Positions 3,957-19,795 of a stretch of 20,000 nt of DNA are shown piece after piece (position 1 is the stretch's first letter; the number at the start of each line of letters is the position of its first letter). The DNA comes from Seison nebaliae. Its lineage: Eukaryota. Location of the stretch: contig JALJEE010000635.1 of assembly GCA_023231475.1 (NCBI GenBank), positions 58,464 through 78,463 on the forward strand, written 5' to 3'. Position numbers and translations under genes: made by a program. Under the pieces are notes generated by a model, which worked only from the letters and a program-made list of their open reading frames with translations, did not search any database and was not told the origin of the DNA.

Positions 3957-4843
3957 ATGATAAAGATAAAGCATTTATTTTTCCATTTTATTTTTTTGGT
4001 ATTAGTTTCTAATTCCGTTTTTGATTATGATCTACTTATAATTAGTGGGAGAGGAACGGAAATGTGTTTAATGCTTCAATGTGCCAAACCGAATGTAGAA
4101 AGAGTACTTTTCTGTCAACAGCAATAGTGAAATTTATTATTTTTTCGTGAAAAATCTTCTACAACCTCTTTCCATTCAGTGGTCCAACTATTCATTATTG
4201 TGCCGAACAGGAAGTTCCACATTATTTTATTGAAATATTTTTACGTTTATAAGTAGATTATCGATATGTTTTCACCGACTCATTATACCATAAACTGCGA
4301 TTTGCGTTCAAATAATTCGGAGACTCCAATTCAAGTTGTCAGATATAAATATGCTCAATGTTCGTTTTCTTTTGTTATCAATAAACATCAACGAATCGAC
4401 AGCGGTCAGAGGTGTGATTTCCAGTTTGGAACATGCACAAAATTATGACACGATTTGTTTATTAGTGCTCTTTATTGTTGGACCGCATGTGTATTATATG
4501 AACGGCGAAGACGATTATTATTTCTTTCCAAAAAATGTTAAATATTTCTCCGGAGATTTTAGATATTTGAAATTTTTCTCTTAGACATCGGTTGATTTAG
4601 GTTATAACATGGCCGATTTCAAGGTAACGACTACTACCACCAGTACAACAACAACTACCACAACAACGACAACAACGATAACTACAACTACGACTACTAC
4701 GACAACAACGACAACTACAACTACGACTACTACTACAACTACAACGACGACAGCACCGACAATTCCCGTAACAACCACTTATTCTACCGCAATTCCCAAG
4801 TTCGTTTTTAATTTACATTTTTTTTTGGTTTAGACAAACATGA
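3957..4843 (+). CDS. Secreted or membrane mucin-like protein, 5' part: signal peptide, Cys-containing domain, poly-Thr tract. Exons 3957-4126, 4180-4213, 4257-4359, 4403-4536, 4585-4799, then either 4834-4843 (stop) or splicing to 5827
   Basis: Hydrophobic N-terminus (HLFFHFIFLVLVS). Four GT-AG introns of 53, 43, 43 and 48 nt give one continuous frame into about 40 Thr codons. The 3' end is ambiguous. Confidence 0.7.
4627..4750 (+). repeat. ACN (Thr) codon repeat, coding low-complexity tract
   Basis: Run of mixed ACA/ACT/ACG/ACC triplets. Synonymous third-position variation fits a protein-level repeat. Confidence 0.95.
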
Positions 4844-5510
4844 CAAATTTGTTTTTATCATTGTCCTTATGATTGTTACGGTATGTACATTACAATTGGA
4901 ATCGATTAATGTCCGTTGTATCATGAGAACTATCATAAAATTCTGATCTGAATATTTTCATTAACATATCCTGATAAGTTTTCTGCTTTATTTTAAAGAC
5001 TTGAATATAATACATTAAGAGGAAAACTTTCCATTTTGTGGAAACATTCCGTACAGGCTCATGTTCTTTCATAATCTTTATCTTTTTAATATTAATGTTT
5101 TAATATTCAAATTGTAAATTCATTTTCGATATTATTATTAACAATAATATTTCCAACATTCTAATGCATCTCTTGTTGGAGATTCTTGAAATTCTTGAAA
5201 TTGTTTTATTCTTCCTCAATATTATTAAACAGTTCTCCACCGGTCTTCAAAACCGTGTGGTCGTTATAAAATTTTCGTATGAATATTCTCCAAATATTTC
5301 TCACTGCTTATAATTCGCGTATAGCTAAAATTATTAATTGTTTCATCCTGTGTATGGAATAAAAATTTAGTTTTCGGTTGAAAATAATAGGTTCAACTTT
5401 TTTATCCATCAATACGATTTCCGAAAATTTCTCTTACGTATGTAGTAAGTGAGAATGAAAAGTATATTTCATGAATATCACCAAACGACACAAAGAGCCC
5501 TATAAGAAAT

Positions 5511-5621
5511 GACCTCCTATAATAATGGCTAATCATATGTGATTAGTAGGAGGAAGGTCCCTAAAGAGGAATCCATGTGAATAACACGCATCGTATGATA
5601 ACGATTAGTGTTATCACATTG
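5511..5621. ncRNA. Candidate double-hairpin small RNA (H/ACA-like)
   Basis: Hairpin 1: CCTCCTA 5513-19 / TAGGAGG 5547-53 and CTAATCA 5529-35 / TGATTAG 5540-46. Hinge: AGAGGA (ANANNA) 5565-70. Hairpin 2: ATAACAC 5581-87 / GTGTTAT 5608-14 and ATCGT 5590-94 / ACGAT 5601-05. ACA at 5616-18. No target identified. Confidence 0.3.
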
Positions 5622-5826
5622 ATCGACGAACTGCTAACTTATAAATAGGAAACCTATTTCTAAGATATTGTGTCTATTTTCTCCTTCTTAAATCATTCCA
5701 TACCAAATAAAGAATTTCTCATTGAAATGGTTTCCTACTTAGCGCACTGCTAACACGTACAATATTTTAGAACGATTCATGATTCGTTTCAATTTCTCTT
5801 TCCCTTAATATTGCTGGTTGATTTAG

Positions 5827-6950
5827 AACGTTGCCACCAGGTGTAACAACAACAACCACCACCACTACTACAACCACAACTACTACAACCACAACAACCA
5901 CAACGACAACGACTACCACTACCACAACCACAACCACAACAACCACTACCAGTCTAACAACAACAACAACAACACTTATAACAAGAACGATTGATGTGAT
6001 CGATTTGATCAGATTGTTTAAATTATTAGAAGAATAATCGAACATGTTTAATTTACAGTTCTGAATTAGCAGTTAACATGACAACGATCTACTATACGAG
6101 ATTTATTGACCAAGGAGTGCGACCTGAAGTACCGGCCAATAATGAAGAACAACCACCACCCAAAATCGTGAAAACGCTGTTAGTTTAAATGATTTCAGCG
6201 AAATGTTCAATTATCATAATTTCGAAGGCAAGTCGATGTTGTTTATTCTATATTGGCAGGGCAAACTGATATAATGTTTGAAATAGCTGGATATTTGGAA
6301 GTTGCAGTTAAGAAAAAAAAAGAAGAGATTTTAAGCGCAGTTTTCATTAAATAGAGAAATTCTCATTCAATTCTCCCAATAGTTGGAATATGGAATCAAG
6401 CAAGAATTTCATAAAGCTGCAAAGTCGAATATAGTTCGCTCTACGCATTCTAGGACTCTTACTCCACCAGAAAATGGAAAATATCATTATATAATCTCAG
6501 CGAAGGTGAAAGATGTAGATTTTCGGTATCTATTCTCCATCAAACCGGAGCAACCGTTAACTGATAGTTTTGTGATGTATCGTCTCGGTCGTTCAGATTT
6601 CGTTAGGAACTTCGAACTGCAAATATCTGTCCTTCATAAAGTGCACGGTTTGAAATCGTTTAATCAACATGAATTGTCAATTTAACATAGAACCTAGATT
6701 GATTACGGTTATTCTGCCCAAGCGGACTTTGCTGAGTGGTAAGTTCTCGATGGAAACTATACTTTTCCTCGTCTTCTTCATTGCCATTCTATTTCTCATT
6801 TTATGTACATGGCGTCAAAGGAAAAGTTAATTTAAATTATTTATAGATTAGAAATCATTCAATTTATCAGAATGTCGCAAAACGGAATCGGTTTTATCCA
6901 CCTTTTCCACCAAACCTTCAGAACAGTATCCATATAATGAAAAAGTATAA
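5827..6950 (+). CDS. Type I transmembrane mucin-like protein, 3' part: poly-Thr, ~160-aa globular (possibly SEA-like) domain, TM, short tail. Exons 5827-6015, 6059-6178, 6228-6306, 6383-6647, 6691-6825, 6871-6950; a further exon 7041-7166 is possible
   Basis: Five GT-AG introns (43, 49, 76, 43, 45 nt) link ORFs 5831..6037 and 6383..6685 to a clear TM segment (ILFLVFFIAILFLILC) followed by a basic stop-transfer (WRQRKK). The SEA assignment is inference only. Confidence 0.75.
5846..5974 (+). repeat. ACN (Thr) codon repeat, second tract
   Basis: About 40 ACA/ACC/ACT/ACG triplets in frame with exon 5827-6015. Confidence 0.95.
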
Positions 6951-14307: not shown

Positions 14308-17300
14308 ATGGAAGAACGACGATATCAGATGAAGTTGTTCCTACTACTTCTCTTGTCGATTGTCGTTGTGCCAATAGCAAATGGGAATTTGGCAGGTTAA
14401 CCATCTACTTACTTCATCAATAGTTTAACAACAATCTCTTCTCTCACTTCACCTCCAGATACACGTTGTCGAGCTGATTCGCTTAGCTGCACCTCTACTC
14501 AAATGTGCCATTCCGGTTCGTATATAATTATTTTGACAGTTTCATAAATTAACATCTATCTACTCATCCGTCTCCTCCATTCGTCGTCGTCGTCTCAAAT
14601 AAATTCCAAATAAATTTTGGACGAATATCTCCTCCCATTCTCATTTTTGATTTCTCATTCCATTTTCTTTTTCCACATTCTCCAATTAACCAATTTCTTG
14701 AGAAGATCCTTTTCGTTTTGAAAATTTATCATAAATTGATTTCAGAATAATAATAATAATAATATTTAAATATTTTCTGTTTAATTAATTCATTTTAGCC
14801 ACTAATCGGTGTGTGGAAATCAGTCAAGTTCCATTGTATGAATCAGTTATCGCTTTGTTTCGGGCACCGGTCGACCTCCAATCCACGAAGATTCAATGCG
14901 TTATCGGGGCGATTGTTGGGACGTTGAATGACGACGAATATGAAGGAATCATCGACATTGAGATTCGGATCGATAGAATCTCAGATTCGATTCTCAGACA
15001 TTGTTGGAATGAGGAGGAGAAGAATGTGATGGAGGAGGATTCGAATGATCGGTCGATGATCGAGAAGGAGAAGAAGGACGAGGAATTATTCGATTCACAA
15101 TTATTGCAGACCATTTCCAATGAGCCTTATTACCGGCATAAATATGAGCGAATCGTTCGAAAGATTGTGAAATTAATGAAAAAATTAAAATCTCCTGATA
15201 CTAAAGACGATACGGGTGCAAGAGATACGGAGATGGAGACAGCACCTTATCGTTTATCTAAACAACAAGTCATCGCCCAGCGCTACTCAATTTTTCCCGA
15301 AAATGTCATTTATATGAATTTGAATGAGAAGTGAGTATATTATTAGTTTGTGTGTGTGTGCGTGTGTGTGTGTGTGTGTGTGAGAATAATCCGCCTTTCT
15401 TCCATTCTCCTCCCAATGATTATAAGTAGATGGAAATTAATTTAAAAAATACGTTGATCTTTTGCAGGAATGGAATGATGAATGGAACGAATGTACGCAA
15501 ATTGTTGGACGGTGTATTGCATCGGATGAACAATCCGATTTCCCCGAAAGACATCGTCGACGATATTAAGTTATTATTATTCCTGGAGAATTTCCTTTAT
15601 CTTCTCCAATTAATTTCTCAACTCTAAACGAATGTTAATTTAGCGTAACTCCACATAAGATAACAGTCGTTATTAAGGAAGAAGAAGCGAATAATTATGG
15701 AATTACTGTAAATGAGATTGCTTCTTTTATTTGTTGGTCTCATTCTCCTCATTCGCCCCCCATTCTTATTATTGAGATCTCTAGGGAACAATCGTGATGA
15801 GCTATTTCCCAACCATACTCTACTCGATGTCGGTCTAGGCTATGATTCAGTTAGTCCTCATTCCATTCATTCTCTCCATCTCCATCCCATCTAACTATTC
15901 TCATAGACATTCGATTGAATAGGATGGATTTTTAATCATCATTATTTCCATAAGAAGGAATTATCATCATTCCTTTAGGCTACCATCTCCCCCCTCATAT
16001 AATATTCTATTATTCTCTACAACTTGTCAATTTTTCGGAAATTAATTATTTCAACTTTCCTTATGATTCTTTCTCTTCCTCTTCCACTACTCAATACACT
16101 TCCATTCCTTTCCTCGAATCATATTCATATCGTCACCATCACCATCACCTGGTGATGATGATGATGAGATACGGTTGTTGTTTATGACAAAACTAACAAA
16201 TTTCCCGTTCACTCAGATTAATGGAAAATCAGTGATAACGTCAACGAATGATGTTGGACGGAATAAGAAGGCTTGGCCAACCACCTTAACCGTGAATGGT
16301 CGTCGTAACATTCTCACCATCACTATCATCATAGTAGCGACTGCTCTCATTCTCATCACCATCATCATATTGGTGACGTTATGTATTCTACCATTCAACG
16401 GGAAAGAACATCCGTTCTCTCCCACCTCTTTCAACTTCTATTCGGTGAAACATTTCCTTGGATCGTTGAGACCGAATCAACAACAAACGACATCGACAAC
16501 GAATGACGATGTGAGCAATTGGGACCAATCATCCAACGAACAATCGAACATTCTCCAACGATTCCGACGATTTTTCACAAAACCGAACGAATTCTATTCG
16601 GATTTACGCGCGTCTGATTCATTAGATGAAGTTCAAGCAAATTATACAGTTCGATGACATTTTCATTCCTATTTGTCATTCTCTCCATCTAAAAAGGATT
16701 TGTGTCGCGAACAACGATTCCTCAATTGCATTTCTGATGTTCAACGATCGTTAAGGTTCGAACTTTGTTATCGTGGAAAACACTTTTCATTTCACCTTTC
16801 CACAGTCAAGAAGAAATTCGTCAAATTTTAGAGGCAGATGACTTAGAAAGTAAAATTGAATATAAAGATGTGAGTTCATTGAATGAGGAAGAAGAGAAGA
16901 ATCGAGAGGAGAATATCGTTGGCTTCATCAACTCATTCCATCATTTCCTATCATGTTAATTGCAGGAGACATTAAACGATTTGTTAATGAACAAAAATAA
17001 TTGTTTCGACGATTTATGGAATCGATTAGAATCTCTATTAAGTCGTACTAATCTGGGAATTTCATCACGAACTGGTTCGTTTCCACTTACCACACATTCG
17101 ATTCCCCTTCATTCATTCATTCATTCTCATTTGACAGGTGTGCACGAACGTAGCACGATTGAAGGCAAAAAGGATGAGAACCAGAGGAAGAACAGATATG
17201 GTCACACATTCATTCCATGTTTCATTTTATTTCTTGTCTAATCGACTAATAATTTTCATTCAGTTGACAGGAATCGTGTCGTACTGCCAATCGAAGAGAA

Positions 17301-18638
17301 TGATTATATCAATGCATCTTATGTCGTTCGACTTCTTTTCTCTCTAATGAAAATTTTATTTTTTCTTTCTCTCAAGAAATTGGAGGATGAGGAAGAAGAA
17401 GAGAAGAAATATATCATCGCACAAGCACCAATGCATGATACGGTCACCGATTTCTGGGAGATGATATGGAACGAGAAAATTACTCAAATTGTCAACTTGA
17501 CGAAGTTGAATGAGAATCAACAGCCTCTTTGCTACCGTTATTGGCCGTGTGAGGACGTGGAGATGTTTAAACATTTCGAAATAAAATTATTGAGAGAAAT
17601 CGTCTTCGATCAAGACAATTTCAGTAAAAGAATTTTACGTTTGAAGAACATTTTGACGGGGGAAAGTCGATCAATTGTCCAATATAATTTCGCAATCTGG
17701 TATCAATTCTCGTTGGGATCGATTAAACGGATTGTGGAAGAAAGAAATGATGAAAATCGATGGGACGACGGTTATCGGTCGGTCGCTACCAAATCTTTAC
17801 TCCAATTTAGAAAGTTAGAGATATTTACTATGATACGTATAATATGTCCATGAATTGGGAAAAAGAAAAATTTCCTTTTTTATTTGCACGAAAATTTGAT
17901 GAACTTTCGCTGTTCACCAAATCGCTTTTGTGATTGATTGCAGTTTCGTATCCCGTCGCTTATGAAACGGCATGCATGTCTGTCGGCCTTCGTCCGTGTC
18001 GCATGTCTCCTTTATGGCAATGCTGATCCGTGAAGGAACTGTCAATCCACATCGAAAGTTGACGGGCATCTTTTATGGTCAGTAGTGCTGCCGTCGGCAC
18101 AAATGTTTCACGCCTTGACTCATGATATTCATTGTCCGTTTGCGATCCTTGATTAATTGCATAGTCATAAAAGTGAATTGGTTTCCAGTAACATAAAGAT
18201 GATTCGTTGATCCTCTTCTCATTGTCCTCTTCTCCTTCAACGATTATTCCATCTTCTAATAATTATTATTCCATTTCATTAAATAGACTAGTGAAACAAA
18301 AACAAACTCCTTCTCAATATCTTTTGGTTCATTGCAAGTTAGCAAATTAGCTTAACCTCTCTTAACTCAATCCGCTCATCAGCAATGGAAGTTCGAGATG
18401 TACCGCGTACTTGTTAATCGATCGCTTAATACAATCACTTAAAAGTTTTCATTATTTTATTTCATCTCATTTATATCAACTCCATCTCTCCACAGAAAAA
18501 CATACGAAGAGTTTAGAGGAAATCATTGAGGAACAGGTGAACTTGTTGAGAAACGAACGAATGAAGAGTCTGTTCACGAAAGAACAACTCGAAATCTCTT
18601 TGGCTACCGTTAAACAATATTATTCAAAAAACTATTGA
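14308..18638 (+). CDS. PTPRN: Receptor-type tyrosine phosphatase N family (IA-2/phogrin, ida-1-like), probable pseudophosphatase. Exons 14308-14395, 14459-14515, 14799-15330, 15468-15569, 15644-15732, 15785-15849, 16217-16648, 16697-16755, 16806-16917, 16966-17074, 17138-17218, 17264-17325, 17377-17813, 18287-18337, 18383-18444, 18496-18638
   Basis: All 15 GT-AG junctions are phase-consistent. The product has a signal peptide (MKLFLLLLLSIVVVPIANG), a 4-Cys N-terminal segment (CRADSLSCTSTQMCHSATNRC), an IA-2-type juxtamembrane domain (VRKLLDGVLH...INVTPHKITVVI...LLDVGLG), a TM, and one PTP domain: KNRY, DYINASYV, YIIAQAP...DFWEMIW, IVNLT, CYRYWP, SLLQFRK, LLVHCNNGSSRC, LRNER...TKEQLEISL. PTPRN versus PTPRN2 cannot be resolved. 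Confidence 0.88.
15349..15382. repeat. (TG)n microsatellite inside intron 15331-15467
   Basis: Directly visible, with one CG interruption. Confidence 0.92.
17896..18210 (+). ncRNA. Unidentified ~315-nt structured intronic RNA element
   Basis: Nested helices pair the two ends (for example 17916-36 / 18162-82, 20 of 21 paired) and close a multibranch domain. About 19 G-U pairs work only on the + strand. The element is GC-richer than its flanks and lies in the 473-nt intron 17814-18286. Confidence 0.75.
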
Positions 18639-19204: not shown

Positions 19205-19277
19205 GGCTCTGTAGCTTAGTGGTTAAAGCGCCTGTCTTGTAAACAGGAGATCACGAGTTCAAATCTCGTCAGGGCCT
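19205..19277 (+). tRNA. trnT-UGU: tRNA-Thr(UGU), copy 1
   Basis: Acceptor GGCTCTG/CAGGGCC, D arm GCTT-AGTGGTTA-AAGC, anticodon arm CCTGT-CT-TGT-AA-ACAGG, T arm ACGAG-TTCAAAT-CTCGT, T discriminator. No encoded CCA and no intron. Confidence 0.97.
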
Positions 19278-19722: not shown

Positions 19723-19795
19723 GGCTCTGTAGCTTAGCGGTTAAAGCGCCTGTCTTGTAAACAGGAGATCACGAGTTCAAATCTCGTCAGAGCCT
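19723..19795 (+). tRNA. trnT-UGU: tRNA-Thr(UGU), copy 2
   Basis: Same cloverleaf as copy 1 with two substitutions, followed directly by a T-run (Pol III terminator-like). Confidence 0.97.

Follow-up and report, generated by a model that had tools for sequence, protein, structure and literature searches.

The largest intron of an IA-2/PTPRN-like receptor phosphatase gene of Seison nebaliae carries an element that is almost certainly homologous to miR-153. From sequence comparison and predicted folding, it is likely to be a working miR-153 gene with a giant hairpin. Its two arms lie in the ancestral IA-2 intron, separated by 211 nt. The element lies on the + strand of the 20,000-nt stretch of DNA analysed here (the window). 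An earlier note, made from the sequence alone, had proposed a snoRNA- or scaRNA-like RNA, a divergent housekeeping RNA or a new cis-acting intronic structure; the identity was wrong, the rod at its base being the miR-153 star/mature duplex with its lower stem. The arms, the conserved position and phase of the intron and the predicted pairing are established by the comparisons below, and continued production of the mature microRNA appears quite probable from the same sequences and fold. The family, its link to the host gene and the long hairpins of Seison were already known; what is new is an additional miR-153 member with an unusually long precursor.

The host gene (14308-18638, +) has 16 exon blocks and corresponds to SNEBB_010330, whose 826-aa product is 100% identical to our predicted protein P0001; the exon at 17377-17811 likewise shows 100% identity to Seison nebaliae SNEBB_010330. 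The protein has a signal-like N-terminus, a single hydrophobic segment and a single phosphatase domain (Pfam Y_phosphatase). Its best single-domain relatives in the PDB are PTPRN2 (2qep, 120.5 bits) and 2i1y (110.4 bits); the totals above PTPRN2 belong to tandem-domain enzymes, in which two domains are summed per score. A Pfam search of the protein and of its putative ectodomain gave nothing relevant to the IA-2 ectodomain. Over matched exons, the phosphatase is ~30-50% identical to its orthologues. Its active-site loop (P0001 residues 757-765, encoded within 18287-18440) reads HCNNGSSRC and is degenerate, less so being the HCSDGAGRT of other animals' loci; from this sequence the domain is likely to be catalytically dead. 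We also observed a low-depth contig of 316 nt over 17403-17701 that is ~84% identical to the phosphatase exon, with 31 of the 38 listed differences at third codon positions. It has the appearance of an orthologue belonging to a diverged Seison lineage, or of a paralogue; Mauer et al. 2021 (PMC8351084) describe two strains of Seison nebaliae. Upstream, two threonine-codon repeat tracts (4620-4760 and 5830-5980, +) probably belong to a neighbouring gene as mucin-like exons.

The intron itself (17814-18286, +, 473 nt) is, as noted before, the largest of all 15 gaps between P0001 exons: eleven measure ~48-77 nt, and the remaining three 137, 283 and 367 nt. It is a phase-2 intron following LLQFR and matches the miR-153 intron of other animals in position and phase. 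This comparison relied on metagenome contigs scanned with the mature miR-153 motif, from which 24 loci were fetched; 21 of them show a normal hairpin or a discernible star arm, the other 3 neither. The LL.FR exon upstream of miR-153 was in view at 14 of the 24 (about 10 distinct loci after near-duplicates), and in all 14 a GT follows at phase 2. The short downstream exon ending in VHC was visible at 8 loci, and both flanks at 6 (L002, L010, L013, L015, L022 and L023), where the linkage of miR-153 to the IA-2 intron can be read from either side. In Seison, the identical phase-2 intron after LLQFR is followed by a short exon one codon shorter, and the next phase-2 intron likewise comes after HC. 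The closest single-domain structure to the flanking exon of L002 is PTPRN2. Going by the vertebrate-like locus L023, intron 19 of the human genes is probably the same intron as that of Seison. Human miR-153-1 and -2 are described (PMC3671108) as lying in intron 19 of the IA-2 and IA-2beta genes and as partly co-regulated with their hosts; our literature survey found no account of the host intron of miR-153 in invertebrates. Judged on these sequences, two arm matches together with exact intron synteny cannot be of chance origin. The Seison locus carries the miR-153/IA-2 linkage into a very fast-evolving, miniaturised genome.

The consensus mature arm has a single match in the 20-kb window (3 mismatches), compared to none in 200 shuffles. 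The predicted mature miR-153-3p (18157-18178, +) retains an intact seed and shares 19 of its 22 bases with the Rfam consensus arm: positions 1-11 are unchanged and the differences fall at 12, 21 and 22. The U for C at position 12 is also found in loci L002 and L015 and forms a wobble G-U with a conserved G; this variant is absent among the MirGeneDB entries listed. When 18150-18200 was scanned alone with cmscan, a 5'-truncated match to mir-153 was obtained (RF00650, model positions 39-73, 20.6 bits, E 0.029), against a gathering score of 54 for the full-length family. The model has 73 positions, too short to span the insert, and only 5 of the 20 fetched metagenome loci scanned passed its threshold. 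Mir-153 was not matched by the 5' arm alone, and the element was left unmatched in Rfam scans of 17600-18500 (E up to 10) and of the whole window. The earlier expectation that an Rfam match would confirm an RNA and remove its novelty is thus borne out in part, with a mir-153 match that is truncated and below threshold. Over the whole window, the sole Rfam matches were two tRNA-Thr(TGT) genes (19205-19277 and 19723-19795, +), 518 nt apart and 98% identical.

For the opposite arm, a matrix was trained on 16 non-redundant loci of other animals, Seison being excluded. Position 17922 ranked first of 39,940 sites with 31.4 bits, compared to 21.3 bits for the reverse complement of the mature arm and a maximum of 20.0 in 20 shuffled windows. 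The predicted miR-153 star (5p) arm (17922-17945, +) aligns with 16 other stars and differs from other MIR-153 in being 24 nt long. Both Seison arms were aligned by MAFFT to the other loci, with one long gap between them. From this alignment we left out loci without a hairpin (L003, L007, L018), near-duplicates (L009, L012, L017, L024) and one truncated locus (L021). In the resulting alignment A1 (17 rows), 87.9% of cells are paired, a covariation count reached in 0 of 500 shuffles; it deserves little weight, since nearly all double changes fall in the lower stem, which is variable, and the control is inflated by related sequences.

Folding of the element is strand-specific. Compared with shuffles, 17896-18210 gave z -3.25 on the + strand and +0.78 on the - strand, as an RNA under structural constraint would and a DNA inverted repeat or MITE would not, in keeping with the earlier reading; z reached -4.90 for 17905-18195. 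Control windows of 315 nt (positions 1 to ~17,700, both strands, 12 shuffles each) fell below -3 in 9 of 118 cases, so that the z-score of 17896-18210 is modest taken alone and not decisive. The GC content of the element is 46-48%, that of its flanks 26-30%. In the same range of the window, two neighbouring imperfect hairpins were observed at 5500-5630; the 315-nt window around them gave z ~ -4 on both strands (12 shuffles), and this two-strand folding suggests a DNA-level inverted repeat.

The fold first proposed for the element stands only in its core. Pairing can be drawn for every one of its seven listed helices, over 56 positions with 11 G-U and 1 mismatch, and the minimum free energy structure of the 315 nt contains 108 pairs, 23 of them G-U, but two of the seven helices are missing from the ensemble. 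Those beginning with 17909-12, 17916-20, 17922-36 and 17939-45 are well supported (P 0.96-0.98), whereas 17946-50/18141-45 (P 0.00) and 17963-69/18104-10 (P 0.01) lie outside it. The latter was to close a junction of three arms, which is unsupported: the arm at 18021-18084 is recovered (P 0.91-0.95), that at 18085-100 reaches only P 0.46 and that at 17970-18006, also outside the ensemble, P 0.04. The terminal helix 17896-903/18203-10 is displaced once the whole intron is folded. Of the predicted fold, one can depend on the rod 17909-17945/18155-18189 and on the hairpin 18021-18084.

Read as a microRNA precursor, the rod has a regular geometry. Star and mature arms pair at P 0.96-0.98 and form a predicted duplex, each end of which carries a 2-nt 3' overhang, as deduced from the fold and not from reads. 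Below it, the 5' strand of the lower stem (17909-17921, +) covers 13 nt before the predicted Drosha cut and pairs with 18178-18189 (P 0.97-0.98); the 3' strand (18179-18189, +) covers, by fold geometry, 11 nt after the other cut. Such 13/11 nt spacing is usual for Drosha. Basal UG and CNNC motifs are absent, with CG at -14/-13 and no CNNC within +16 to +22; these motifs aid microRNA processing and are not required for it. The predicted precursor measures 257 nt, made of the 24-nt star, the 211-nt insert and the 22-nt mature arm, and two base pairs past the predicted Dicer site a 9x8-nt internal loop opens, with further helices beyond.

The locus could then operate as follows. Transcription would produce the hairpin as part of the IA-2-like pre-mRNA. 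Cuts by Drosha/Pasha before 17922 and after 18178 would lie 13 and 11 nt up from the foot of the lower stem, the internal loop beside the duplex replacing the terminal loop as the Pasha platform, and this cropping would release the 257-nt precursor. Dicer, measuring from the 2-nt overhang, would excise the folded insert. The 3p arm would be loaded into Argonaute and repress mRNAs bearing a match to the miR-153 seed; the probable site of this action would be the neurosecretory cells in which the host gene is expressed. According to Javad-zada et al. 2025 (PMC12553114), fly mir-989 needs both a bulge near the dicing site and a paired extension, and long precursors are said to be overlooked by ortholog finders; bulge and extension are both predicted in the Seison hairpin.

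The insert predicted to be excised by Dicer (17946-18156, +, 48% GC) starts with UCG. It opens with the internal loop (17946-54/18147-54), followed by a helix at 17955-59/18142-46. Further inside lies the hairpin 18021-18084 (+), of 24 bp including 6 G-U, which folds on the + strand alone (z -4.46, against -0.09 on the - strand). Half of the insert is at shuffle level (z -0.1 and -0.26) and the whole insert gave z -1.52. No relevant family was found by an Rfam scan of the insert alone. The idea that the insert arose from the hairpin by tandem duplication was also considered and was unsupported in 6 of 6 comparisons by global and local alignment (best case: 125 of 500 shuffles equal or higher).

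The strand-specific inner hairpin raises the possibility that the Seison precursor is two-in-one, the hairpin being a functional small RNA or a switch gating the processing of miR-153. We regard this as improbable; if true, it would also account for the miss of miR-153 in whole-animal sequencing. In a broader version, likewise improbable, the miR-153 arms flank such a nested small RNA or switch, or else belong to a long RNA capped by box C/D elements and running from 17897 to ~18202. The sequences TGATGA (17897-902) and ATGA (18199-202) are set off from the splice sites by ~82 and ~84 nt, a snoRNA-like spacing. Against this, the canonical CUGA D box is missing at the 3' end, the insert matches no Rfam family, and the inner hairpin has no lower stem of its own and resembles by eye none of the 29 MirGeneDB Seison entries. 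Moreover, paired extensions are described as general in long precursors (PMC12553114) and would explain the inner structure without a second RNA. The C-box-like TGATGA and D-box-like TTGA to which the earlier note had drawn attention both lie outside the predicted Microprocessor substrate (17909-18189). A plain box C/D snoRNA or scaRNA was rejected, with only ATGA/TTGA at the 3' end, the terminal helix displaced and no snoRNA family below E 4.

Other identities fare worse. The Rfam models of SRP RNA, RNase P/MRP and U3, of which the earlier note had seen no hallmark motifs, were unmatched at E up to 10 in 17600-18500; the snoRNA, scaRNA, 7SK and telomerase models were unmatched as well. That the intron encodes a divergent housekeeping RNA, telomerase RNA for instance, and resembles miR-153 only fortuitously is extremely unlikely. 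This reading draws on a 1.5-copy hexamer at 18045-53, mostly unpaired (0.74), which would template a repeat one base off the TGTGGG repeat of Adineta (Nowell et al. 2021, PMC7943196, on rotifer telomere repeats), and on the intronic telomerase RNA of Caenorhabditis (Klapproth et al. 2026, PMC12921731). Yet the element contains 27 such short periodic motifs, on account of which the template idea was rejected; the one at 18045-53 sits within an 11-nt hairpin loop, and two arm matches with exact intron synteny are incompatible with chance. No telomere repeat of Seison was found in the literature consulted. A decayed DNA inverted repeat or MITE has next to no probability: the GC step between element and flanks could mark an insertion at the origin of the loop, but folding is confined to one strand and the arms are those of miR-153. 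Two-strand terminal inverted repeats are absent. Of four sequencing runs, two cover the element, each with one contig over it and no second contig at 80% likeness; two small runs gave no contig there.

The main rival to a working gene is a miR-153 locus that is barely or no longer processed, its insert having outgrown the limits of the Seison Microprocessor or Dicer and its arms being a recent relic. The missing families are reported without reads in PMC12256650, the insert exceeds by 41 nt the longest annotated Seison loop (170 nt among the 29 MirGeneDB Seison entries as tabulated in table S1B of PMC12553114), extreme hairpins fail in fly and human cells according to the same source, and the mature arm carries three changes. 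We nevertheless hold a relic to be unlikely. Neither the seed nor any of the first 11 nt has changed, and the star retains the family core, despite the low identity of the host phosphatase to its orthologues (~30-50%); all arm changes preserve pairing or are confined to the 3' end, which is variable; the geometry of the lower stem is preserved; and loops of up to 238 nt, the longest among 3p matures in MirGeneDB 3.0 (PMC11701709), are processed elsewhere.

A working miR-153 gene would contradict the published record. In Herlyn et al. 2025 (PMC12256650), Mir-153 is scored 0 in Seison and in both acanthocephalans and 1-4 in all 22 monogononts and bdelloids, and in the one Seison small-RNA library no reads of missing families are reported. 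The Seison RPM values given there are multiples of ~5.8, which by arithmetic corresponds to ~170,000 microRNA reads. With one read at ~5.8 RPM and Mir-153 expressed at 453-1530 RPM in other rotifers (same source, same tables), a rotifer-typical level of miR-153 should give dozens of reads. The zero for Mir-153 is weak when taken alone, as one Let-7 row of the table is also 0 for Seison although Let-7 is annotated there; moreover, an exact-match read search would miss Seison miR-153, given the absence of C12U among the MirGeneDB entries listed. Mir-153 is absent from the 29 MirGeneDB Seison rows, and by eye none of them is this locus. A full-text literature search found nothing on mir-153 in Seison. 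The published loss of Mir-153 in Seison is likely false.

Other entries of these tables were noticed in passing. The first 10 bases of Seison 'Novel-10' equal Mir-242 of most species listed, yet Mir-242 is scored lost; 'Novel-9' (5p arm) and 'Novel-4' presumably resemble Mir-10 and Mir-12. The family table gives Seison Mir-36 as 0 and Mir-8 as 1; among the 29 rows, by contrast, there are two Mir-36 but no Mir-8. Seison microRNA losses may be overcounted. This matters for the published argument that the loss of microRNAs goes hand in hand with body-plan reduction in parasites of rotifer descent, in which Mir-153 is one of 30 Seison losses; 37 families are scored lost in acanthocephalans. An intact-looking miR-153 in its ancestral intron indicates that at least this loss count can reflect a failure of detection arising from long hairpins, for which a cheap remedy would be to search the arms separately and in conserved host introns. 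Seison miR-153 would be the longest precursor among those annotated in the species and a natural test substrate for Microprocessor and Dicer on giant hairpins.

Compared with the MIR-153 family (RF00650; human miR-153-1/-2), the Seison locus shares the seed, 19 of 22 mature bases, the star core and the 3p-arm layout, together with the host gene type, intron position and phase. It differs in the distance between the arms, 211 nt in Seison against 14-38 nt across seven other measured loci; the first Mir-153 to appear in the length-ordered MirGeneDB table, that of Gordionus, has 113 nt. The annotated long-hairpin microRNAs of Seison likewise have long, partly folded inserts; UUG or UCG opens 19 of the 29 loops, and the miR-153 insert starts in the same manner with UCG. 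Seison hairpins measure 75-175 nt, with one above 200 (PMC12256650); the miR-153 insert is longer than all 29 annotated and GC-richer, and its family was scored lost. With the giant invertebrate hairpins described in PMC12553114 (mir-989, Daphnia mir-375/let-7/mir-278, lepidopteran mir-12), the Seison hairpin has in common a conserved duplex, a bulge and a paired extension. Those belong to other families and another phylum and exceed 1 kb at their extremes, Seison being far shorter, and the Seison insert, unlike them, is branched, with a fold that exceeds shuffles in stability only in part.
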